A DNA stretch of 64,000 nucleotides from a virus. Lineage: Duplodnaviria > Caudoviricetes. The stretch spans positions 32,001 to 96,000 of the IMG/VR virus record IMGVR_UViG_3300033463_005840; one strand, given 5' to 3'. The notes under the pieces are model-generated. The model worked only from the letters and a program-made list of their open reading frames with translations, did no database searches and was not told the DNA's origin. Made by a program: the position numbers and the translations under genes. Below, piece by piece: positions 5,187-63,980 of the stretch; the first letter of the stretch is position 1, and each line of letters opens with the position of its first letter.

Positions 5187-6575
5187 ATGCTAAAAAGTAC
5201 AAATAAGGTATTCGCATCTTCGTCTCTCCCCATTATGGCATATAGCAATGGTGAGAAAACGAAGATTCGGAGTTATATTGATAAAGAAAGCAACACTGTT
5301 ATTCTTTCTAATTTTTCTGAATTAAGACCTCGTTCCCCGATTTCCGGTAGTGTAATGGTTCCGAATATTAAAGACCGTTACATTAGAAATCTTACCAGTA
5401 AAGATTTTGAATCTTTGGTTAATGTTGCTACTTGCCCTAAATGCGGAAAAAAACTTTATACGAGTAAGTCTATCGCCGCCGTTTTAAGTAAAGCGCATTG
5501 TATTCATTGTGGGGAGCTTTTCGATATTGAAGACGGAAAGGATTATTACAATAAATTAGGTGAATTGATTGACGAAGTTGATACCGAAATCAAACATAAA
5601 ACTCCTGATGAAGTTGTAGAGTCTGCCACTAAGAAAGACGAAAAAGAAGATATGAAAGAAAAAGATAAGAATAAGAAAGATGAAAAAGAGGGTAAAAAGG
5701 CAATGAAGAAAACCGTTTCTGCCGCTGAAATTGATTCTTTGATTGATGAAGTTCTTTCGGAAAGCAAAAAGAAAGAAGATAAGAAAGACAAAAAATCAAA
5801 AGAAGTTGAAGAACAGGCAAAGAATAAAGAAAAAGCTGAGTGCGCTGTTGAGGATATTAAAGTTGATATGCTTTCAACGGTTTCTTCTTTTGATGATTTA
5901 TCCGTTATTCCTTCTGGTTCTGAAAATTTCCATTACATTATGGCTAACAAAAAGCCTGTCGCCATGTTGCATAAATTCAGAGCGATAAGTGCCGTTGCTG
6001 ATATGTTTGAGAATCTTCCGACTTTGGAAAATACTTTGAAAGAATCAGTACAGGAAAAGAAAGGTTTTACCAGAGAGATTAAATCCAGCTTTGGTATCGT
6101 TCCTGTCATTATGAAGATTAAAGCTTCAAAAGTTATTGATGAAAAAATTAATAAGAAAGTTGCTGAAATTGAAGCTAATGCTCAAAAGAAGATTGAAGAT
6201 GCTACTGAATCTTACAATCAGTGTTTGGGTATTGCAACCGCTGGACTTAACAAAGATGCTTTTGATGATTGTAATAACGTTCTCGCTAATGAATTGATTA
6301 AAAAATTCAATGCTGTTGGCGTTGAAGATGCTGAAACAATTGTTAAAGCTACTTTTGAAGCCCATGCTAATGAGTATTTGTTGCAGATAATCAATAAGGC
6401 AAATACTTTTAAAAATAAGAGTTTAGAAGAAAGAAATGAAATTGCCTCTAAGGTAATTAATTTCAGTTCTAAAGAGAGCAAAATCACGCCTTCGATGATT
6501 GAAAACATTGAAGCTGTTGAAGATGCAAAACAGAAAGAAGCCTCCGATATTTCGGCAGTCTTGTTTGGTAAATAA
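5187..6575 (+). CDS. putative prohead scaffold/core protein with Zn-ribbon
   Basis: CPKC..CIHC, a charged low-complexity centre and a helical C-terminus; first gene of the capsid operon; variant late motif at ~5086-5100. Confidence 0.55.
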   Translation: MLKSTNKVFASSSLPIMAYSNGEKTKIRSYIDKESNTVILSNFSELRPRSPISGSVMVPNIKDRYIRNLTSKDFESLVNVATCPKCGKKLYTSKSIAAVLSKAHCIHCGELFDIEDGKDYYNKLGELIDEVDTEIKHKTPDEVVESATKKDEKEDMKEKDKNKKDEKEGKKAMKKTVSAAEIDSLIDEVLSESKKKEDKKDKKSKEVEEQAKNKEKAECAVEDIKVDMLSTVSSFDDLSVIPSGSENFHYIMANKKPVAMLHKFRAISAVADMFENLPTLENTLKESVQEKKGFTREIKSSFGIVPVIMKIKASKVIDEKINKKVAEIEANAQKKIEDATESYNQCLGIATAGLNKDAFDDCNNVLANELIKKFNAVGVEDAETIVKATFEAHANEYLLQIINKANTFKNKSLEERNEIASKVINFSSKESKITPSMIENIEAVEDAKQKEASDISAVLFGK

Positions 6576-9670: not shown

Positions 9671-10225
9671 ATGATTACCAGAAAAAACAAACTTACGTTT
9701 AAGAAACACAGCATAAAATCAGCTTTGCGCCGGAGACCCATATTATCGGCTAGGGATGACGCTGAATCTTTGCTCAAAAACATGATGCCTCATATAGGAG
9801 ATGAGGTAGACAAAGTAGAGTCTGGCAAAGTTTATATTAAGACAGATTATCCTTTATACGGCGGGACAGGTTATTTTGTTGCTGATATCCCTTTTATGGT
9901 GATTTATGATAGTCATAACGGAGAACTTTTAGACGTTATTATTCGTGAAAAGGACTTAAGATATTCCATGGAAGATTTATTTCAAGAAATTTTTAATGGG
10001 ATAGACTTTGGCGGTATGTCCGAGGAAGAGTTTAATGAAATCACTCCTGAAGAAGCCATAGAAATCGGAAAAGATGAGTTCGAGGCCTTTATGGACTATA
10101 TGTATGATACTTATAGCCATATAGACAAAGCCAAGTTTGTCCGTTTGGTAAAACAGTATATGGAAGAGGAAGGAATTGTTGAATCCTCTTTTAAGATACA
10201 TCGCAGATTCAAAAATTCTAATTAA
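9671..10225 (+). CDS. acidic hypothetical protein with basic N- and C-terminal tags
   Basis: MITRKNK..IKSA LRRRPILSA, acidic core, IVESS FKIHRRF. Confidence 0.7.
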   Translation: MITRKNKLTFKKHSIKSALRRRPILSARDDAESLLKNMMPHIGDEVDKVESGKVYIKTDYPLYGGTGYFVADIPFMVIYDSHNGELLDVIIREKDLRYSMEDLFQEIFNGIDFGGMSEEEFNEITPEEAIEIGKDEFEAFMDYMYDTYSHIDKAKFVRLVKQYMEEEGIVESSFKIHRRFKNSN

Positions 10226-10241
10226 GAAAGGATATTATAAA

Positions 10242-11315
10242 ATGATTAAAAGAAATTTTAACAAGCATAACGTAAAAAGCAATTTAATTAACAGAATTAA
10301 GCATAAAAGACGGATTGAATCTGCTTATGGCTTAATAGATGGTCCTACCTTCGATAAAAATAAAAAAGTATATACTTATTATACTCCTGACGTTATATAT
10401 GTTACTCAGCACCCTTTAAAAACTAATAAAAGTCTTGGTTTAATAGAGGTTTTTGATAATGTGGACGATGCGACCGCCACTATGTGGAAATGGGAAGATG
10501 AAGATACTGGTGCCGGCTGTACTTTCTATATAGATAGAAATCTTATTGATATGACAGATGAAGAATTAGAAATTGCAGAAGAGGATGATGATTCTGAAGA
10601 ATATGAGTATTTAAACAGCATTCTTATAGATTCTGGTATGCCTTTACATGGTGTTGAAGACCTTTCCGATAAATATGGAACGGGCAATGAAGAAGTATGG
10701 TATTATCCTTGGTATCTGGAGGATAAAGAGAACAATGTTGTTGACTCTCATTTAAGAGAAACAGCAAAATCTTTGCCTAAAAGAAAAAGGCTCGTTAAAA
10801 GTTCTATGGACGAAGAAAAGCTTAATAAAATTAAATTCTTTTTTATAAAAGACGTTGGTTGCACTCCTAAGTCCATAGAATTAAAAAATGGGGGCGTAGA
10901 TGTAATTGTCTCTTTACCTATGGATGAATATAATAGAACTGACTTTAATAAAAAGCTTTATGCTTTTAAAAAAGAATATAAAAACTCATCTGGAACTGAT
11001 TTAGTTACCGAAGATTTAACTACATATAAACGTGATAGTATTTTTAATAAAAAGAAAACTCCTTATACGTACTTGCATTTTTTTGAACTTAATCCTTCGG
11101 TTAAGCTTGAGTCTTCTTTAAGACCTTTCCGTAGGTTTAATATAACGGAATCTGCTTACGGTGATAAAAGAAATTATCCTAAAATTGATATTTTTGAAGA
11201 TGGAGAATACGTCGCCACTACAACATGGGCTAAAACATGTAAAGAAGCAGAGGAAAGATATAAAGAAGAACATCCAAAAGCTAAAAACGTAAAAGCTAGA
11301 AAACAGAGGAGCTAA
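10242..11315 (+). CDS. three-module putative polyprotein
   Basis: ATG 10242 after AAGGA; three payload blocks separated by basic linkers bounded by IESA, VVDS/VKSS and LESS/TESA. Confidence 0.7.
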   Translation: MIKRNFNKHNVKSNLINRIKHKRRIESAYGLIDGPTFDKNKKVYTYYTPDVIYVTQHPLKTNKSLGLIEVFDNVDDATATMWKWEDEDTGAGCTFYIDRNLIDMTDEELEIAEEDDDSEEYEYLNSILIDSGMPLHGVEDLSDKYGTGNEEVWYYPWYLEDKENNVVDSHLRETAKSLPKRKRLVKSSMDEEKLNKIKFFFIKDVGCTPKSIELKNGGVDVIVSLPMDEYNRTDFNKKLYAFKKEYKNSSGTDLVTEDLTTYKRDSIFNKKKTPYTYLHFFELNPSVKLESSLRPFRRFNITESAYGDKRNYPKIDIFEDGEYVATTTWAKTCKEAEERYKEEHPKAKNVKARKQRS

Positions 11316-23363: not shown

Positions 23364-23416
23364 AAAAATCCCTCTTGTAAAAAAGAGGGATTTTTGTTTA
23401 ATATATATTTATAGAA
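23364..23416 (+). repeat. terminator + late promoter cassette
   Basis: AAAAATCCCTCTTGTAAAAAAGAGGGATTTTTGTTTAATATATATTTATAGAA, near-identical at 25919 and 32895. Confidence 0.85.
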
Positions 23417-23952: not shown

Positions 23953-24068
23953 AATAGGAGAAATCTTATGCCTAAAAACAGTAATTAAATCAATTTCATT
24001 AACTGTTGTTTAAATCTATGAAATAGGTTACAATAATTTTAATATATATTTATAGAAGGAGTATTTAC

Positions 24069-40988: not shown

Positions 40989-42332
40989 ATGTTGAATTTT
41001 AAAAAGAGAGTTAGTTTGAATTTGCAAAAAGTTTTTGACATTTCAAAGAATGTCAAAAAAGTTATGTGTGAAGTTAATACCAATGACTATACATTTAATG
41101 ATATAAAGTCGGCGGCGATTGACTTGTTTACAGTTAAGGCTTCCATGGTTAAGAGCACTTATCGGCAAGTTGCTGATAATTATGTTTCGTTTGTTCTTAT
41201 GCCAAATAAGATTTCAAAGCCTTATGATAAGACCAAGTATAAAACAATTTCCTCAGATATAATCTCTGATATTCAGGATAATAGCATTTGGAAAGTCGTT
41301 GATGTGGATGGAGAGAAGAGAATAGTTTTGATTGATGACCAAAACTTCAATAATATCTTTAAAGCGTCAACCAGAATTTCAACTTTCGCTGCAATGTATG
41401 AGCCGCCGAAAGCAGCAATAAATGATTATGTGTCTTTTTATTCGATTAAAAGCAATGCGTTGGTTTCTGGTATTGTTACAGAAGCTGAAGATGATACTTC
41501 AATTATTATTGACCGTAACTGTAAATATCACCGCATTAAAAATAATGCAATCATTGACGTTGCTGATATGCACAATTCCAGTTTGAATCAATGCTTGTCA
41601 AATCTTACTGAAACTATGGGCGACAATGTTCTTTCTTATTATAAAATGCTTTATGATAATACAGCGTTCTTTGATAAATTAGATGAATTGGTTGGTATTG
41701 ACGTTAAGAGTAATAAGGGCGGCGATACTATGACCATTCAATCCGCTTTGTTGGATGAAGATACTATTAATAATATGAAAGATGTTATTAAAGATTATTT
41801 CATTAATAATATTGACAATGAAGAAGATGTTGGTAATACGGAAGGTGATTTTGATATTGACGTTGACCCTATGTTTGAGGGCGATGACGTTTTAGAGTTT
41901 GTTGTTGATGAGAACGATGATTTGGAAACTCTTGAAGATGTACCTTCTGCTGATGTTCTTACACCTGTTGAAACGCCGGTTATCGTTGACAATCCTGCTA
42001 TTACGGATATTGGTGTTGACCATGTTGCGCCTGTTACGGATATTGCGCCTGTTGCACCCGCTATTCCGGCTGTTGAACCTGTTATACCGGAAGCCGACCC
42101 TGCAATGCCATTGATGGTTGATGAAACTATTCCAACTATTGATATGGAAACTCCTGTTGCTCCGACATACAATCCTTCTGATATTATCGTCAATCCCGAT
42201 AATTCGGTGACAAGACAAGAAATTTTGCCTTCGCAAAAAGATAATATAGTTCCCGAAGACGAGCTTTCTGTTGACGATTTGATAGATGAAGTTTTAGAGG
42301 AAGAAAAGAAGGAATTAGGTGACAATGTATAA
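40989..42332 (+). CDS. putative head-associated protein with acidic Pro-rich tail
   Basis: Late motif at 40911; Asp/Pro-rich C-half ending VDDLIDEVLEE. Confidence 0.55.
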   Translation: MLNFKKRVSLNLQKVFDISKNVKKVMCEVNTNDYTFNDIKSAAIDLFTVKASMVKSTYRQVADNYVSFVLMPNKISKPYDKTKYKTISSDIISDIQDNSIWKVVDVDGEKRIVLIDDQNFNNIFKASTRISTFAAMYEPPKAAINDYVSFYSIKSNALVSGIVTEAEDDTSIIIDRNCKYHRIKNNAIIDVADMHNSSLNQCLSNLTETMGDNVLSYYKMLYDNTAFFDKLDELVGIDVKSNKGGDTMTIQSALLDEDTINNMKDVIKDYFINNIDNEEDVGNTEGDFDIDVDPMFEGDDVLEFVVDENDDLETLEDVPSADVLTPVETPVIVDNPAITDIGVDHVAPVTDIAPVAPAIPAVEPVIPEADPAMPLMVDETIPTIDMETPVAPTYNPSDIIVNPDNSVTRQEILPSQKDNIVPEDELSVDDLIDEVLEEEKKELGDNV

Positions 42333-55895: not shown

Positions 55896-58800
55896 ATGGA
55901 TTTTAATCCTTTAGAAACAGACATAAACGAAAACGTTTGGAAGTTATTAAAAGACGCTTCATTAGCTATTTTTACGGCTTTTAAAAAAGAAACGGATGAC
56001 TTAGGTGTTATAAGAACTTACTCTGTGTCAGACTTTTCCGAATTAAGTGGCAATTCCGTTATTAATTGCCTTTTGTCGAGTTTTGAGTATGAGGTTGAAT
56101 ATCCTGAAAACATGATGAATTGGAAAGTTAAAAGTGTTTTCGGTAAAAAGAAAGATAACGTTGAAAAGCTCTTTAAAAAAATATTCCCTGACTTTATTCT
56201 CCCTTCTTATACAAAGAGCATACAAATCAACCCTTTGAAAGACATTACCTTTGTCCCCAGAGTAGACATGAAAGATTATGAGAGTCAAACACTCACAATT
56301 AAAGATTTGAATAATATTTTTAAATCACGTTTGAAAGACGAAGACTCAAGACTTTCCTTCAAATTTTATTTGAATAAAGAAGAGGTCGCGTTTAAAAATA
56401 CTGATATAAATAGTGGAATAAATCTTATCGAGAACAATACGGTTATTTTTACCATAAAGATTAATGTCTTTTTAAAGAGCGAATCTGATATGGTTAAATT
56501 TGTGACGAACTCAAATGTTTTATGTTTACCTATATATAAGCAGTTTATTGCAAAACAACTTAGTTCCTTACAGCAATATACGGATAAACCGTTTAACCAG
56601 ATGAATAACATCCCTGTTTATGATGTTAAAGCTTTCGACTATACGAATAAGTTTATTCAATTATATGAACAAGGCAAGATTTTTTGGGTGCCGGATTGTG
56701 ATTTGCTTTACGCCGATTATATTAATAACTATAATCTTATGTATAATGCGGACAGCAAGACCATAAAAGAGGGGATTCCTGAGGGCAATATTAATAAAGT
56801 TCTGTATGTTGATGGTGTTACCAAAACCCTTGTTTATACAGATGAGCAAGCTAATATATGTTCTTTTTCTTTTTATGGGGGAGAGCTTTTAGGTAAAGAC
56901 GTACCGCCAAAAAAGCCAGAGTCTTTCGATAATTTTATGAAAATCGCTTCTCTTGAGTTTGGTCTCTTAAACACCTCTTACGAAAATCAGATATTAAAGA
57001 TTTATGAGAACTTCTCGGTTTTAAAAATCAATGTTCTTTTAAAATGCGAAAATAAGTATTATTTGAAGTTGGAGTATGACAGGATTAAAAATGTCATTCC
57101 TTTTTACGACAAAGAACCTACTCTTAAACTGGATAAAGATTTAATTAAGCCTCCAAGATTCAATCTCGGCAGATTACCTGTTATTTATAATACTTTCTTT
57201 ACGGATTTTTCCAAGAATAAAGTATTGTTTGATTTTGACTTGTCTTTGCGAGACACCTTCTTTATCAATCATATCTATACATTGTTAGCGAATTATATTA
57301 TTAAAAGAGCGGTCATTTTAACAAATGACACTTCAATTTTATTTGAAAAGCTTACAACAAAAGGGGTCAATCCGTTTATAATAGACGAAGTTACTTTACC
57401 AAATCTTATATCTGTATTAAAAGACGGAATCATTGATTATATAAAGCAGCTTCCAAAAGAGGTGATAATCTTAATCAACCCCTCGATATTTTCTGCCGAG
57501 AATATAACTAATGTTAAAAAAGAACTGGTCGGCAATAAACCTGCTTACAGACATTTGGTTATTGAACTGCTTTCAAAGATGGATTACGATTATTTTGTTT
57601 ACTACCAGACTACGATAATCAATGAGTCATCCGAGACGGTTTTATGCTTAAAGGAATTATTTAATGTTGCTAAATACCGTTATATGTGGTCTCACTCCAA
57701 CTTTAACATTAAACTCTTAGGTGATGGTTATTCTGATTTCAAGACCAAAGAGATTGTCTTCTATGAGCTTGAGTATGAAAACGTGCCTGTTAAGCTTGGG
57801 GATAATAAATTAAAGTTTTATGCAGAAACATTAAAGAAGATTGCTATTGATATTATTAATGATGAAAATTATCACTCTTTGGTGGAAGAGTCGGATTTTA
57901 ATAAACGTAATTGGAAGATAAACAATTATCTGTATAATCGTTTATCTTTGCCATTAAACTTTATTAATAACCCAAATGATAAAGACTATGTTTATGTGGA
58001 ACAGTTTGACCAAGAGGACTCTGGCCTTATCTCCGATAAAGTTTTATTTATAAATCAAATAATATACGCACATACATACGGCGGCCTTATTAATAATGTT
58101 AAACGTAACACGGTTGCCGGCAAGATTATGATAATCTGCAAAGACCATACGACACGCCAATATCTTAAAGAGAAAATCAGCGCTTATGGCAATAACGATA
58201 AAATCATTCTGGAGATTGCGGATTCGTTTATCGCTTCTGCCGATTATACGGATGCTGATGTTTATATCATATATGATACCCCGTTTGACTCTTCTTATCT
58301 CAATAATATCATTAATGCCATTCAGTATCAGAAATTAAACGGCTTATATGATTATAAGAAATCTTATATATATACGCTAACTTATGAAAATACTTTAGAA
58401 ACAACTATCTTGAACGACAATCTCAATTATATTTTGTCACAGGGTATGAATCATAATTATAATGATTTGTTTTATACTGATGAGAAAGATTTTATATCGC
58501 AAGACATATCTTATCAGAGTATAGATGCGTTAAACGCTCTGTTATATAAAAAATATACGGACTCCAAAGATGTCATTGAATCTTATAAAGAGTTTATCTT
58601 TAATAAATTTTATGCTACTTATACGGATGCAGATGTTATTGAGGTTACGACCGTTGTACCGACAGATGACTCTTTTAATCCTCCGTTACCTGATTATTTT
58701 TACCCGATTAACGAAGAAACTTTCATTACCGATAATGGTGTGAAACTGGATAGCGTTTACACTTTTAATTGCTTAGACTTTAAAGGCAATCCCCTTTATA

Positions 58801-59585
58801 AAGAGAATTATAAGGTGGAAATTAATGATACGGTATTCACGGAATATGGTAATGCGGTTTTAAAAAGCGTAAATGACTGTTTTGCCTTAGTTCAGTTAAA
58901 AGATACGCAGATTTCGCTCCGTAAAGACAAGATATTTACGGCATTGACACAGAAGCTGAATCCGGATTTCGTAAAGATTAATGATTATATGATTAAGTTT
59001 ATTAAGAATGATGAGATTGTTGATAATGAGGCCAAAGAGGATGAGTGTATAGAATTGGATGCGGCAATTGTTGATGGTTTCCCCACATTATTAACTTTTA
59101 TTCAGGATAAGGATAATGAAAAATTATCTGCCTTTGACTTTAAGTGTTTAAAGAATATCTCAATGGCTAATATAATTAACCTTAACGATGCTAACCTGAT
59201 TCTTAATACCATAAAGAGTTACGTTTCAGAAGACCGTTTTAATTATATGCGTGGAGTCTGTCTTAAATTCTTTAACGGAGAGAAAATCAAACTCCCGCAG
59301 AAAAATTCGTTTTATAATCAATTCGGGGAAACTCTTACAGTCAGTATAATAGATGGTAAATTATATTTTGTGTTTAATTCGGAGGCTAAATATGCCGGTA
59401 AGATTAAAAACAAAATGGATATTGCTTGTATGTATATAAAAACGTTTACGAATTTGCAGGATATAAGATTAGAAATTTATCGCATAAACAAATTTTTAAC
59501 TATTGTAAATATAAACTCTTTATTGGAAAAACTTTCAAGAGACTCTTTCAAAAACTTGTTTGAATTTAAGCCCTTTAAAAGTTAA
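55896..59585 (+). CDS. large protein with degenerate SNF2/helicase-C-like segment
   Basis: GKIMIIC..ADVYIIYDTPF....IYTLTYENTLE; no recognisable Walker A or DExx. Confidence 0.55.
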   Translation: MDFNPLETDINENVWKLLKDASLAIFTAFKKETDDLGVIRTYSVSDFSELSGNSVINCLLSSFEYEVEYPENMMNWKVKSVFGKKKDNVEKLFKKIFPDFILPSYTKSIQINPLKDITFVPRVDMKDYESQTLTIKDLNNIFKSRLKDEDSRLSFKFYLNKEEVAFKNTDINSGINLIENNTVIFTIKINVFLKSESDMVKFVTNSNVLCLPIYKQFIAKQLSSLQQYTDKPFNQMNNIPVYDVKAFDYTNKFIQLYEQGKIFWVPDCDLLYADYINNYNLMYNADSKTIKEGIPEGNINKVLYVDGVTKTLVYTDEQANICSFSFYGGELLGKDVPPKKPESFDNFMKIASLEFGLLNTSYENQILKIYENFSVLKINVLLKCENKYYLKLEYDRIKNVIPFYDKEPTLKLDKDLIKPPRFNLGRLPVIYNTFFTDFSKNKVLFDFDLSLRDTFFINHIYTLLANYIIKRAVILTNDTSILFEKLTTKGVNPFIIDEVTLPNLISVLKDGIIDYIKQLPKEVIILINPSIFSAENITNVKKELVGNKPAYRHLVIELLSKMDYDYFVYYQTTIINESSETVLCLKELFNVAKYRYMWSHSNFNIKLLGDGYSDFKTKEIVFYELEYENVPVKLGDNKLKFYAETLKKIAIDIINDENYHSLVEESDFNKRNWKINNYLYNRLSLPLNFINNPNDKDYVYVEQFDQEDSGLISDKVLFINQIIYAHTYGGLINNVKRNTVAGKIMIICKDHTTRQYLKEKISAYGNNDKIILEIADSFIASADYTDADVYIIYDTPFDSSYLNNIINAIQYQKLNGLYDYKKSYIYTLTYENTLETTILNDNLNYILSQGMNHNYNDLFYTDEKDFISQDISYQSIDALNALLYKKYTDSKDVIESYKEFIFNKFYATYTDADVIEVTTVVPTDDSFNPPLPDYFYPINEETFITDNGVKLDSVYTFNCLDFKGNPLYKENYKVEINDTVFTEYGNAVLKSVNDCFALVQLKDTQISLRKDKIFTALTQKLNPDFVKINDYMIKFIKNDEIVDNEAKEDECIELDAAIVDGFPTLLTFIQDKDNEKLSAFDFKCLKNISMANIINLNDANLILNTIKSYVSEDRFNYMRGVCLKFFNGEKIKLPQKNSFYNQFGETLTVSIIDGKLYFVFNSEAKYAGKIKNKMDIACMYIKTFTNLQDIRLEIYRINKFLTIVNINSLLEKLSRDSFKNLFEFKPFKS

Positions 59586-59721
59586 ACTGTTTGGCTCTGT
59601 TTAACAATAGTGTTGAATTTAATTCTCCTTAATCAAATTTTTTGTTAAAGAAAAGTGTTGATTTACTCTCATTCTTTTAATACAATAAATAATAGGAAGT
59701 CAAGAGAATGAGAGGCTTATT

Positions 59722-60762
59722 ATGGACCAAGTAACAATACTCAGACAAATGTTTAAAACCCTTTCTCCAGAAGAGCAGAAGACATTTTTAAAATCATTGA
59801 AGCAAAAATCCGATGAAACGGAAGACTTTAAATCCTTCAAAGAAACGATTTTAAAACATAGCAATCATCCGTCTTCAGACCGGATTTGCTGTCCGCATTG
59901 TCATAGTGCTAATGTAACCAAGAACGGACACAAAGACCATGTTCAAAGATTCAGATGCAAAGATTGTGGTAAAACGTTCACTTACTCTAATAACACTATA
60001 ATCTTTTCAACGAAAAAGGACATAAGCAAGTGGGAGAAGTATTGCGAGTGTCTTTTGCATAAATTTACGTTACGGAAATCCGCTGAAATCTGTGGGATAT
60101 CCCTGCCGACCGCTTTCAGTTGGAGGCATAAAATCTTAGACGCTTTACAGAATATGCAGAATGACATTACCTTATCGGGAGTTGTTGAAGCGGATGAGAC
60201 GTTTTTCTCTGTCAGTTTTAAGGGACAAAAGAAAGAAAATTTTAGCATTCCCCGTGAGAGCAGACATAGAGGACATTCCAACTCTGTGCGGGGACTTTCT
60301 TACGAACAGGTTTGCGTACCGTGTATGGTAAACCATGAAGGAATGTCCGTTGGTAAAATCTCTAACTTAGGAAAACCTAATATTATGGACTTAGGGAAAG
60401 TAATCAATAACAAGATTGAAAAAGGTTCCGTCTTTGTCACTGATTCTTTAAAGAGCTATCAAAAAGTCGCTTTTGAGAATGAGTTAACCCATGTAAGAAT
60501 ACCCAGAGGCAAATATAAATCAGGAGCTTTTAACATTCAGACCATAAACAGCTATCACTCTGAATTAAAAAGACTGGTTATCGGTATCTTTAAGGGAGTT
60601 GCCACTAAGTATCTTAATAATTACATCGTTTACAATAATTTTTCTAATTTTTCCAAGAAAAATTTTTGTAATAAGTTAAATGAGCTGAAAGATTTTGTAT
60701 TCAGTACCTGCTGCAATACAAGAGGTTATTCAATAAGTTCACGAAAGGCGATACCGGTTTAA
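59722..60762 (+). CDS. IS1595-family transposase
   Basis: Zn finger CPHC..CKDC, HTH, VEADETF, VTDS..SY, IQTINSYHS..KR, GVATKYLNNY. Confidence 0.92.
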   Translation: MDQVTILRQMFKTLSPEEQKTFLKSLKQKSDETEDFKSFKETILKHSNHPSSDRICCPHCHSANVTKNGHKDHVQRFRCKDCGKTFTYSNNTIIFSTKKDISKWEKYCECLLHKFTLRKSAEICGISLPTAFSWRHKILDALQNMQNDITLSGVVEADETFFSVSFKGQKKENFSIPRESRHRGHSNSVRGLSYEQVCVPCMVNHEGMSVGKISNLGKPNIMDLGKVINNKIEKGSVFVTDSLKSYQKVAFENELTHVRIPRGKYKSGAFNIQTINSYHSELKRLVIGIFKGVATKYLNNYIVYNNFSNFSKKNFCNKLNELKDFVFSTCCNTRGYSISSRKAIPV

Positions 60763-60787
60763 TATATATTTATAGAAGGAAAGGAAA

Positions 60788-61033
60788 ATGGCTATGATTA
60801 CTAGAAAACGCACAAACAAAGATGTAGACGCTCTCATAGATGAAGTTCTTGCCGAAAACAACGAAGGGAACGAAGTCGAAAGCGGAACTATGACTGCTTT
60901 GGATAGGTATATTGTTGAAACATCTGACGAAATCTATCAGGACTATTTAAACGGCAAAAATTATGTTTCGCTGGAAGAAGCTATTGCTGAAATGGAAAGA
61001 GAGACGGGAAAGAGATATCATGTCAAAATATAA
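60788..61033 (+). CDS. putative antitoxin with phage-type N-terminal extension
   Basis: Acidic, 81 aa, overlaps toxin start; ends QDYLNGKNYVSLEEAIAEM; late motif at 60763. Confidence 0.6.
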   Translation: MAMITRKRTNKDVDALIDEVLAENNEGNEVESGTMTALDRYIVETSDEIYQDYLNGKNYVSLEEAIAEMERETGKRYHVKI

Positions 61034-61439
61034 AGTTAACATCTCAAATAAAGCTAAGGCTGAAATTAAAGACCAATACAAGTATATCTGTAGCTACGCT
61101 GATACTATAGATGTAGCAGATAATTGGTATGAGCAAACTATGAATGAGATTGCTAAATTAGCTTATATTCATGGATTCTCTGAATACCCGTTTATCAAGA
61201 AATTTAAAGCTCAAAAGAAAATTTTCGGTAAGGGAAGGCATTTTCAATTTATTCTCATTTATACCGTTAATGATGAAAAGGAAGAGATACTTATTATCCA
61301 TTGCCTTAACTGTAAACAAAAGCCTGTTAAATCTAATCTGATTCTAAGCCGTCATATACAAAGACATATACCTATAAACAGGCGTATTGCTTTTATCAGA
61401 TACAACAGGCGAAAAGTGCTTTGTAGGCATGGTAATTAA
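61020..61439 (+). CDS. RelE/ParE-family toxin with basic C-terminal extension
   Basis: YKVNISNKAKAEIKDQYKYI...A..W...I.KL...FILIYTV..E..ILIIH. Confidence 0.75.
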   Translation: MSKYKVNISNKAKAEIKDQYKYICSYADTIDVADNWYEQTMNEIAKLAYIHGFSEYPFIKKFKAQKKIFGKGRHFQFILIYTVNDEKEEILIIHCLNCKQKPVKSNLILSRHIQRHIPINRRIAFIRYNRRKVLCRHGN

Positions 61440-61511
61440 TGCTACTATTTCTAAAACAATAATTATTGAAAGGTGAATATTGATGTTTGATTTTGTCTAT
61501 TTTGTCCAACT

Positions 61512-61521
61512 GGGGGGGGGG
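61512..61521 (+). repeat. G10 homopolymer
   Basis: Ten consecutive G in AT-rich DNA upstream of the R-M gene. Confidence 0.85.
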
Positions 61522-61575
61522 AATCACATAGTTTAATAGATAATGGCTGTACCGATTATACGGGAGGTACAGTTA

Positions 61576-63843
61576 ATGTCTAAAGTCTCAGAGACCGTTA
61601 CAGAAAACATTTTTAGAAATTTTTACGGTTCAAATACTTTTATTGAAAAATCAGCAATCCCTAATAAGTATGGATTTAAAAGTAAAAATCAAACAGACGC
61701 ACAAGGTTATCCTGATTTTTTTATAGAAAGAAATAATTACTTAATAATTGTTGAAGCAAAAGCAGAGTTGATAAAAGATGCGGAAAATGACATCGAGTTC
61801 TATCTAAATAACAACTCTACCGAATGTAACTTGTTAGGCATAGCAATAGCTGGACAAAGTGAAAACTCGATAAAAGTGAGATATTATTTCAAACATAAAA
61901 ACACAGCTAAGATTGAAAAATTACCAATTAAAGATTGCTTAAAAAAATTAGACGACATCGACATTATTATAAATAGGCTTTTATATGGCGATGATATATC
62001 TAATAAGGATTTACAGAAGCTTTTGAGTAATTTGAATAACCAATTTCATGATTACAACATTAGAGATACTGATAGGAGTTTATTCTTTTCTTCACTTTTA
62101 ATATCGCTGAAGGATGATAATTTCAGAGCTATCTATGATAAAGTTAAACCATGTATTTCAAATTCCAATCAAAATATTTCAATTCAATGTTCAAACTTAA
62201 ATAAATTGATTCTGGATGCTGTTGATAAACAACTGGAAGATAAAGTAAATTCTAATTCTAAACAAATTACATGGCTATCGAGATTTAGCTTTATATCAAA
62301 TATAGATATTCCTTTAGATAGTTACATTGCAATAATAAAAAGGATTGAAAATAGCATATTCAATTTGGTCGAGAAGAAAGAGAAGCAAGACATTTTAGGA
62401 AAGGCTTACAAAATATTCTTAGCAAGAGCTGGTGCAGCAGAAAATAAGAATATTATCTTTACCCCTGACCACATAAAATCATTGATGGTACGATTAGCGA
62501 GAGTTAATCATAAATCCATTATATTAGATACTTGTACCGGTTCAGGTGGTTTCTTAATGGAAGCGATGGAGCGAATGATTTCTGACGCTAATGGCAATGA
62601 CCAAGTTATTGAAAGCATTATTAATAAACAATTAATAGGGATTGAAAATGACCCCGTATTATTTTCACTAGCTTGTTCTAATATGTTTCTGCACGGAGAT
62701 GGAAAAACCAACTTAATTTTCAGAAATAGTTTGTTAGATTTAAAGATTGCAGATGATGTAAACTTGCTAAAGTATATAAAATCATTATCTCCTACACATG
62801 TAATTATAAACCCACCGTATGAAAACGGTAAACCAATAAAATTTACTAAACAAGCTCTTGATTATTTAAATTCTAACGGTAAGTTGATAATAATTATGCC
62901 CAGTATTACACTAATGCAGAATATAAAAAACGGCGAACCAACTGAAATTTTAAGTGAAATTCTTAGTGTTGCAAAACTTGATTATGTTATTAACTTGCCT
63001 AAAACTATTTTTAAAGAACAAAAAAGGGATGTATATCCATCCATCTTTGGATTTACTAAAACCCCTCACTGTCCTTCAGATGAAGTAATCTTTTGCAATA
63101 TTGAAGATGATTGTTTGGTTACTATTCAACATAAAGGCAGGATTGATAAGAATAAACTATGGTATGATAAACCTGGTATGAAAAATTTAGAGTTTCAAAT
63201 TTTTGATACTGTAACTAACCATAAACAGCAAGATATTATTATCAATAATAAAATAGTAGGTAAATCATATATAAAGCATATATTTCATAACAATCATATC
63301 AAACTATTCTACGGCATTAATGATGATAAACAAGATTTAGTCAAGTTTGGTGATATTTTTGATGTAAACGAAAAAGGCTCTTTGCAGTCTGAAAAGAATG
63401 ACCCTAACGGAGATTTTGATTTTATTACAGCATCAGAAGTATGGAAGAAACATAGTGCCTATGACCATGAGCAAGAAGCGATTATATACGCTGTTGAAGC
63501 TGAAGGTTCATTAGGCAGAGCACATTATGTCAATGGAAAATTTATTGCTAGTAATCTGTGTTTAATTCTTAGACCAAAAAATCCAAACAAATACCCGATT
63601 GATTTAGAGTTTTATTCCTATTATTTAATGAAGATTAGAAGTCGGTTAATTATGGATTTGGCTTACGGAGCATCTAAGAGAACCATAAATCCTGCTAATC
63701 TGGCAGAATATAGAATTAAATACTTTCCATATAATGAACAAATAAAATGCAAGAATGAGATTAAAAGCAAATTAAGTATAATCAGAATAAAAGCATTGGA
63801 ACTAGAAGAACTAAAAAATACAGCTTATGATGTAATAGCTTGA
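61576..63843 (+). CDS. fused type IIG-like restriction-modification enzyme (nuclease, N6-MTase, TRD)
   Basis: GYPDFF..IVEAK nuclease motif; FTPDHI, LDTCTGSGGFL, NPPY; HsdS-like C-terminus; GGGAGG RBS before ATG 61576. Confidence 0.85.
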   Translation: MSKVSETVTENIFRNFYGSNTFIEKSAIPNKYGFKSKNQTDAQGYPDFFIERNNYLIIVEAKAELIKDAENDIEFYLNNNSTECNLLGIAIAGQSENSIKVRYYFKHKNTAKIEKLPIKDCLKKLDDIDIIINRLLYGDDISNKDLQKLLSNLNNQFHDYNIRDTDRSLFFSSLLISLKDDNFRAIYDKVKPCISNSNQNISIQCSNLNKLILDAVDKQLEDKVNSNSKQITWLSRFSFISNIDIPLDSYIAIIKRIENSIFNLVEKKEKQDILGKAYKIFLARAGAAENKNIIFTPDHIKSLMVRLARVNHKSIILDTCTGSGGFLMEAMERMISDANGNDQVIESIINKQLIGIENDPVLFSLACSNMFLHGDGKTNLIFRNSLLDLKIADDVNLLKYIKSLSPTHVIINPPYENGKPIKFTKQALDYLNSNGKLIIIMPSITLMQNIKNGEPTEILSEILSVAKLDYVINLPKTIFKEQKRDVYPSIFGFTKTPHCPSDEVIFCNIEDDCLVTIQHKGRIDKNKLWYDKPGMKNLEFQIFDTVTNHKQQDIIINNKIVGKSYIKHIFHNNHIKLFYGINDDKQDLVKFGDIFDVNEKGSLQSEKNDPNGDFDFITASEVWKKHSAYDHEQEAIIYAVEAEGSLGRAHYVNGKFIASNLCLILRPKNPNKYPIDLEFYSYYLMKIRSRLIMDLAYGASKRTINPANLAEYRIKYFPYNEQIKCKNEIKSKLSIIRIKALELEELKNTAYDVIA

Positions 63844-63948
63844 TTGCTACTTTTAGTCTCTCCCTGCCAATATTCCCCCTCCCTTTAAAAACTTTGCATT
63901 GGCAGGGTCGGTTTCAATACTATTGTTAAACAGAGCGAACTGTTTTTT

Positions 63949-63980
63949 AAAATCCCTCTTGCAAAAAAGAGGGATTTTTT
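63949..63980 (+). terminator. phage repeated terminator
   Basis: AAAATCCCTCTT-GCAAA-AAGAGGGATTTT, same family as 23364. Confidence 0.85.

Follow-up and report, generated by a model that had tools for sequence, protein, structure and literature searches.

Toxins of the RelE/ParE superfamily act on different targets, gyrase in the case of ParE and ribosome-bound mRNA in the case of RelE and YoeB, and structures of RelE/ParE–antitoxin complexes have been solved. The PaaA2–ParE2 system of E. coli O157 has a small antitoxin without a DNA-binding domain, and phd–doc of phage P1 is an addiction module borne by a phage. The pair of genes described here, from a tailed-phage contig of which we analysed a single 64,000-nucleotide stretch (‘the window’), recalls both of these systems. 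As with PaaA2, its antitoxin is a short acidic protein that would only wrap the toxin, and regulation must come from elsewhere; unlike PaaA2–ParE2, the pair is not adjoined by a PaaR2-like regulator gene, and PaaA2 and the antitoxin have no significant sequence match (an Atlas feature score of 0.76 is a lead only). As with phd–doc, a predicted type II toxin–antitoxin (TA) pair on a phage genome could penalise loss of that genome, whereas the toxin family differs and the pair here is transposon cargo.

Two groups of mobile elements offer further points of comparison. In transposons of the Tn3 family, TA pairs are embedded in the transposition module beside the transposase gene, and in Tn5401 and TnBth4 a ParE toxin is accompanied by a ParD that lacks the DNA-binding domain, ‘ParD-noDBD’ (PMC7157771). 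There, as in our locus, a RelE/ParE-superfamily toxin and a small antitoxin adjoin the transposase gene, expression is possibly from neighbouring promoters, and an addiction role has been proposed for the transposon; unlike those transposons, ours is a DDE element of the IS1595 family without resolvase or res site, its antitoxin is of an unclassified family, and its putative promoter is a phage motif (PMC7157771). IS1595-type elements that carry passenger genes have been termed transporter IS, or tIS (Siguier, Gagnevin and Chandler, 2009, via PMC3129680). Such a tIS encodes one IS1595-type transposase that includes a zinc ribbon, is bounded by short terminal inverted repeats and an 8-bp target duplication, and places its passenger genes between the transposase and the right end (PMC3129680), all of which we find here. 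Compared with these elements, the present one has two cargo modules (the TA pair and a type IIG restriction–modification, R-M, gene) and sits in a large phage with a copy of a phage late-type promoter inside it.

Our interpretation, to which we assign a probability of roughly 0.7 on the strength of sequence, structural models and analogy, is that an IS1595 transporter IS carries the TA operon alongside a second cargo module, and that the operon is placed under a late-type promoter and serves as addiction or conflict cargo. The locus shows a route by which defence and addiction genes enter phages, namely a small IS1595-type transposon carrying both TA and R-M genes. Cargo transposons of the IS1595 family are a known kind, and the capture of a promoter is the one unusual feature: an exact copy of a putative phage late-gene promoter inside a transposon, ahead of a TA pair with a non-self-regulating antitoxin.

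The transposon and its insertion site

The window derives from a 213,785-bp metagenome contig (~214 kb) from bovine gut samples, which encodes a tail sheath, portal, tail fibre and virion protein as well as a DnaB-type helicase and HNH genes; the contig is therefore a large tailed phage. A megablast search with the stretch found no match in the phage collection. Within it lies a complete, 4,345-bp IS1595-family cargo transposon (59593–63937). Its ends were located by aligning the upstream region with that of relatives, where similarity starts at a shared GGCTCTGTT, and by searching the window and several relatives for the reverse complement of this GGCTCTGTT start. The left inverted repeat (59593–59617, + strand) starts with GGCTCTGTT, as do those of the bacterial relatives, and pairs with the right one (63913–63937, − strand) at 23 of 25 positions. 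Outside them stand two perfectly matching copies of an 8-bp target-site duplication, AACTGTTT, at 59585–59592 and 63938–63945, the left of which shares one base with a 1229-aa phage gene, the final one of its stop codon. The inner motif of the repeat, AAAAGTGTTGATTTA, has a second copy at 59640–59666, 47 nt inside the left end, and this inner copy includes the -35-like TTGATT of the transposase's sigma-70-type promoter (59658–59686).

The transposase gene (59722–60762, + strand) is intact, and its 346-aa product has a zinc ribbon at the N-terminus as well as a DDE domain. It matches the family model NF033547 at 179 bits (E 9.7e-53, cut-off 75), the zinc-ribbon model NF050000 at 50.9 bits (cut-off 28) and PF12762 at 58.9 bits (E 7.8e-16, cut-off 27). 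The element thus combines what marks an IS1595-family transporter IS, that is a transposase with a zinc ribbon, inverted repeats with an 8-bp duplication, and passenger genes inside. A preliminary description of this DNA had placed the TA pair inside an IS1595 element, and the ends, the duplication and the NF033547 match bear this out. Relatives of the transposase occur in genomes of Succinivibrio, Succinatimonas and other Succinivibrionaceae (59–75% identity), in Turicimonas (46%) and on one other viral contig (L001), where the gene is split into two ORFs. Perfect 8-bp duplications also flank relatives L010 and L015, as well as the Turicimonas copies, which are bare insertion sequences of 1.16 kb.

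Because the duplication is perfect and surrounds all 4,345 bp, both the TA pair and its promoter copy must already have been cargo when the element moved here. This settles part of what the preliminary description had left as alternatives, that the pair either landed inside the IS or was domesticated there: whichever occurred, it preceded the move to this site. Landing of an IS beside a resident phage TA gene does not fit this arrangement of the target duplication, and we reject it. In our interpretation the entire element would have transposed together into the space that separates the 1229-aa gene's stop codon from a hairpin terminator (63949–63978, + strand), an intrinsic terminator of the phage that the insertion has parted from that gene; no phage gene is broken. 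The protein directly 5′ of the insertion (55896–59585) has no Pfam or PHROG match, and no relatives of its gene were found among the viral contigs searched. Neither the reconstructed empty site nor the motif–TA junction has an exact match in viral contigs, none of the assembly contigs checked contains a joint that skips the element, and the empty site and the inverted repeat have no match in a collection of metagenome contigs that evidently lacks even the source sample.

The toxin–antitoxin pair and its relatives

Judged from its sequence and from the predicted complex of its products, the region 60788–61439 is a type II TA operon, consisting of two small co-oriented genes, antitoxin first, with a 14-nt overlap. 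The antitoxin (60788–61033, + strand) is an acidic protein of 81 aa (pI 4.5), of which residues 33–81 are the predicted toxin-binding part and residues 1–32 a short region outside the modelled interface and without a recognisable DNA-binding domain. Searches of Pfam, NCBIfam, PHROGs and PADLOC gave no family match and no RHH, HTH, AbrB or Phd domain; the nearest named clusters, PaaA2, RelB3_C and DUF6290, are leads only. Lacking a DNA-binding domain, the antitoxin is therefore expected not to autoregulate, and the operon to depend on an outside promoter.

The toxin ORF (61020–61439, + strand; 139 aa) starts M-S-K-Y-K-V like its relatives and comprises a core (61020–61322, residues 1–101), the start of which overlaps the end of the antitoxin, and a C-terminal tail with the stop codon (61323–61439, residues 102–139). 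We consider that the toxin probably belongs to the RelE/ParE sequence and fold family. As a single sequence it matches PF05016 (ParE_toxin) at E 0.0078 and 17.2 bits, below the curated 23-bit cut-off, and phrog_5232 (‘toxin’) at E 1e-3, while a single-sequence search of the PDB returned noise only. An exhaustive HMMER search found three relatives; two of these, P0006 and P0007, carry PF05016, one has a RelB-family partner, and the profile built from the four sequences matches YoeB (7v5y) at E 2.5e-4. The core is full-length, aligning end to end with these relatives; the alignments, including that with YoeB, gave no assignment of catalytic or target-defining residues. The ESM Atlas model of the toxin superposes on a 102-aa ParE-like cluster with a TM score of 0.88 over residues 1–103, and the AlphaFold model, from a four-row alignment, is poor (pLDDT 45, and about 27 in the tail).

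Modelling of the two proteins together gave a score of 0.82, against 0.02 for the best of three controls, with a mark for this score that is reached by 58 of 80 solved complexes and by 2 of 110 mismatched pairs. Contacts agreed between runs to at least 81%, the pLDDT of the partner was at least 71, the interface was formed by antitoxin residues 33–81, and the model was confident across the whole toxin core. This result may in part reflect likeness to the RelE/ParE–antitoxin complexes already solved.

Both proteins are very divergent: across billions of sequences no more than four or five relatives came up, and word-based searches returned the proteins themselves and a single antitoxin homologue, P0003. 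The latter, encoded on small contigs (L002–L004), is 71% identical to the antitoxin over the whole protein. At the DNA level, L002 (1520–1790) is 83.6% identical over 238 nt, keeps the antitoxin–toxin junction and continues into the first 10 toxin codons before the similarity breaks off; the two genes are therefore ancestral partners, and the antitoxin of L002 is an orphan. The pairing is conserved also in L016 (136–627), where the partner of the closest toxin relative is homologous to the C-terminal half of the antitoxin. The contigs with P0003 have 42% GC and carry oxidoreductase, DUF1828/1829 and DUF6978 genes; no phage structural genes were seen on them, and L002 has no complete tRNA. Searches with the antitoxin profile and the toxin found no match in 98 genomes of the transposase relatives' family, nor in the four genomes with L006, L009, L011 and L013, in both cases without a positive control, so that these results say nothing about absence. 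The antitoxin belongs to no named family, and once cloned the pair would extend the RelE/ParE systems by a new branch.

Related modules appear to be decaying. In contigs L002–L004 the antitoxin remains but just 10 toxin codons are left, and the closest toxin relative, P0005, matches up to residue 71 only, beyond which it continues, in antisense, into a gene for a lipid A acyltransferase.

The late-type promoter motif and the restriction–modification cargo

A copy of the late-type promoter motif (60758–60780, + strand; core TATATATTTA at 60763) overlaps the transposase stop codon (TAA, 60760–60762) and ends 7 nt before the antitoxin start. The preliminary description had reported a 20-mer at the transposase stop that is identical to one at 24041. 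The 20-mer starts inside that stop codon, the match is exact (60761–60780 and 24041–24060) and the identity in fact extends to 23 nt (60758–60780 and 24038–24060); a further copy with two mismatches lies at 23400 (0.01 expected), and when one mismatch is allowed a 21-mer is found five times. Across the window the + strand has 18 occurrences of the core TATATATTTA, from 268 to 60763, and the − strand has none (0.47 expected). All occurrences are intergenic, 16–125 nt and once 451 nt before the next ORF, the genes downstream include those for the sheath, portal, tail fibre and virion protein, and the transposon-borne copy is the 18th. This fits a late, -10-only type of promoter, and the earlier observation that the TA pair stands directly behind the phage's own late-type signal is upheld. 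A ribosome-binding site lies between the motif and the antitoxin start, with a spacing like that of site 24038 before its ORF. Three other sites (23397, 25952 and 32928) are each preceded by the same hairpin as that at 63949–63978 (AAAATCCCTCTTG...), and so form repeated terminator–promoter units.

In comparison with relatives L007 and L013, about 16 nt of the motif stand exactly between the conserved transposase stop and the GAAAGGAAAAT ribosome-binding stretch. Bacterial relatives of the element lack the motif at this position, with no copy behind the transposase stop in 7 relatives; it is also missing from about 40 kb of Succinivibrionaceae loci, and its exact form is absent from L002, the homologous antitoxin locus. 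The motif–antitoxin junction is conserved in contigs from two other studies (runs X3 and X4, both at a depth of 2–3.5x): the X4 contig is identical over 60763–60905, and in the X3 contig, which covers 60720–60855, all differences fall at 60790–60815 and none in the motif. Read from the listed differences, the X3 copy has lost the first ATG of the antitoxin gene and starts at the second, with a different N-terminus. We propose that the transposon lineage captured the phage's late-type promoter, a copy of which now separates the transposase stop from the ribosome-binding site of the antitoxin. As the antitoxin lacks a DNA-binding domain, the operon is probably transcribed by the late machinery of the phage. 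The + strand lacks a terminator from the motif up to 63949, which makes the hairpin at 63949–63978 the first 3′ of the promoter copy; transcription would thus meet no terminator inside the element and probably continues into the R-M gene. None of the sequencing runs found to contain the stretch was an RNA run. If the promoter is active, the locus would clearly exemplify how a transposon takes on the transcription programme of its viral host, and the TA and R-M cargo would act in phage–phage or phage–host conflict at a defined time of infection.

The second cargo gene (61543–63843, + strand) encodes a type IIG-like fusion of nuclease, N6-methyltransferase and specificity domains of 766 aa. Its product matches PF02384 (E 4.5e-23) and the PADLOC model REase_MTase_IIG (E 1e-42), with a Specificity_I match on residues 612–759. 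Just 5′ of this gene is a leader ORF of 17 codons (61483–61536, + strand) with a tract of ten G residues (61512–61521), which, from its sequence, is probably a phase-variation switch of the type IIG gene. With G8 or G11, the 17-codon leader would be extended to a stop that overlaps an internal ATG at 61576, and that ATG has a GGAGG ribosome-binding site; in run X3 we find a version of the poly-G tract that is 5 G shorter. Simple-sequence tracts after the transposase stop are also present in relatives, as poly-G in L007 (4039–4120) and L013 (4037–4115) and as CAAT repeats just after the stop in L008, L009 and L014.

All relatives with enough flanking sequence (L006, L007, L009, L011 and L013 from Succinivibrionaceae genomes, and the viral contig L001) carry R-M genes inside GGCTCTGTT repeats. 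This cargo, directly after the transposase stop, is of type I, II or III: a type II methylase with its partner, a ScaI-like enzyme with a C protein, a type III Mod/Res pair, or type I HsdM/HsdS. From these sequences, the transposase lineage looks specialised in moving R-M systems. None of the transposase relatives compared has a TA pair, which makes the pair here an additional cassette, placed between the transposase and the leader and R-M gene that usually follow it.

The stretch between the toxin stop and the leader ORF (61456–61481) coincides with a break in two independent assemblies, the JGI contig L005 and the Logan contigs of run X2. The sequence GAAAGGTGAATAT there echoes the GAAAGGAAAAT found 3′ of the promoter copy at 60775, and GAAAGG..AAT flanks the TA pair on both sides, at 60775 and 61467. 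This stretch may mark the edge of a cassette, or else a variant within the population.

Competing readings of the locus

We envisage that the pair would make it costly to lose the element or its carrier phage genome, and would stabilise the neighbouring R-M gene. Most likely, by analogy with the TA pairs of Tn3-family transposons and the addiction modules of phages and plasmids, the pair acts in addiction or conflict, with a promoter that would be active late and a product that would be toxic; a virion payload is most likely not what the pair is. Set against this are the sub-threshold Pfam match of the toxin, its poor AlphaFold model and the existence of orphaned or truncated relatives (L002, P0005). 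The tail bears on this point. The toxin relatives are 97–114 aa long and the 38-aa tail, with a pI of 12, ten K+R and no D or E, has no counterpart in any of them, so that the extra basic tail noted earlier does lie past the relatives' ends, by ~38 residues. Among the loci examined we found no DNA or peptide homologue of the tail and no vestigial right end. It may be a true basic extension, or it may be translated only because the stop was lost where two cassettes meet, and it could mean that the toxin gene is damaged. A rival reading is that of a decaying module, in which a cassette boundary would have cost the toxin its original stop and perhaps its activity as well, while a retained antitoxin may neutralise ParE/RelE-type toxins of the host or of rival elements. 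We regard this as unlikely, though the unmodelled, homologue-free tail agrees with it, as do the two nearest loci (L002 and P0005/L016), where the toxin is lost or truncated and the antitoxin retained, and the two assembly breaks just past the toxin gene; runs X3 and X4 likewise show the antitoxin region but not the toxin, at a coverage of about 2–3x that is too low to show absence. Against decay, no part of the toxin core is missing when it is aligned with its relatives, the complex model is confident over all of it, and a frame that stays open for 38 codons in DNA of 33% GC, which by our own estimate has a chance of roughly 5%, is mildly unexpected for junk. Alternatively, the promoter copy may serve mainly the R-M gene, so as to methylate progeny DNA and cut rivals late in infection, with the TA pair a bystander insert that is expressed incidentally. 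The placement of R-M cargo directly after the transposase stop in all relatives would suit this, together with the lack of a terminator between the TA pair and the R-M gene and the repeated GAAAGG..AAT, which gives the leader region the look of having received a cassette. The motif, however, ends just before the antitoxin with a ribosome-binding site in between, spaced as at 24038, and its junction with the antitoxin is conserved in two other studies, and we think this reading improbable; it is in any case compatible with the interpretation of late-expressed addiction or conflict cargo.

The preliminary description had gone further, proposing a phage-adapted TA module with phage-specific extensions that is made late, packed into the virion and injected, either for host shut-off or to neutralise host TA defence. 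We hold this to be very improbable. The promoter copy directly upstream and the toxin tail speak for it, the latter also by its open frame (~5% by chance, as above), and so does a slight excess over shuffled sequences of short peptides shared with phage ORFs: nine 5-mers where 2.9 are expected and two 6-mers where 0.15 are expected, with no shared 7-mers. The antitoxin, though, argues the other way. Its N-terminal extension, thought to be specific to phages, is present in P0003, outside any phage context seen, with a matching K-R-T-N-K-D basic patch and acidic helix and a 3-residue gap, so that in the comparison with homologues the tail of the toxin was absent as foreseen and the N-terminal region of the antitoxin was not. 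This N-terminus is moreover acidic (residues 1–33: pI 4.3, with four K+R against eight D+E), in contrast to the K/R-rich leaders of the phage's candidate payload proteins, and those putative leaders are N-terminal whereas the toxin tail is C-terminal. Nor do the individual peptides carry the proposal. The short matches MITRK, VKSNLI and LIDEVL have no DNA-level homology behind them, and the closest relative does not keep them. MITRK does occur at 9671 and EVESG in the antitoxin, but neither is kept in P0003 or X3; VKSNLI is indeed shared, with a copy at 10272 rather than at 10242, its serine codons being AGC in one and TCT in the other. A variant of the proposal, that a phage-adapted transposon lineage has captured the late promoter and expresses the TA pair late, with the basic-tailed toxin and/or the antitoxin loaded into virions or acting on the next host or co-infecting phages, seems to us just as hard to credit; were it true, a virion-loaded late TA pair would be a phage weapon and not a plain addiction module.

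The 11-mer VDALIDEVLAE, which had been described as shared with a putative scaffold protein, occurs in no other ORF of the window, and only LIDEVL recurs, at 5739 and 42279. At both positions it is part of a D-x-LIDEVL-x-E acidic helix, common to a K/E-rich 462-aa protein (ORF 5187–6575) and a 447-aa protein, in which it lies at the C-terminus (ORF 40989–42332), and the antitoxin stretch is similar. The presence of such a helix in two phage proteins would favour the phage-adapted, packaged module discussed above, and it may be just a common amphipathic helix.
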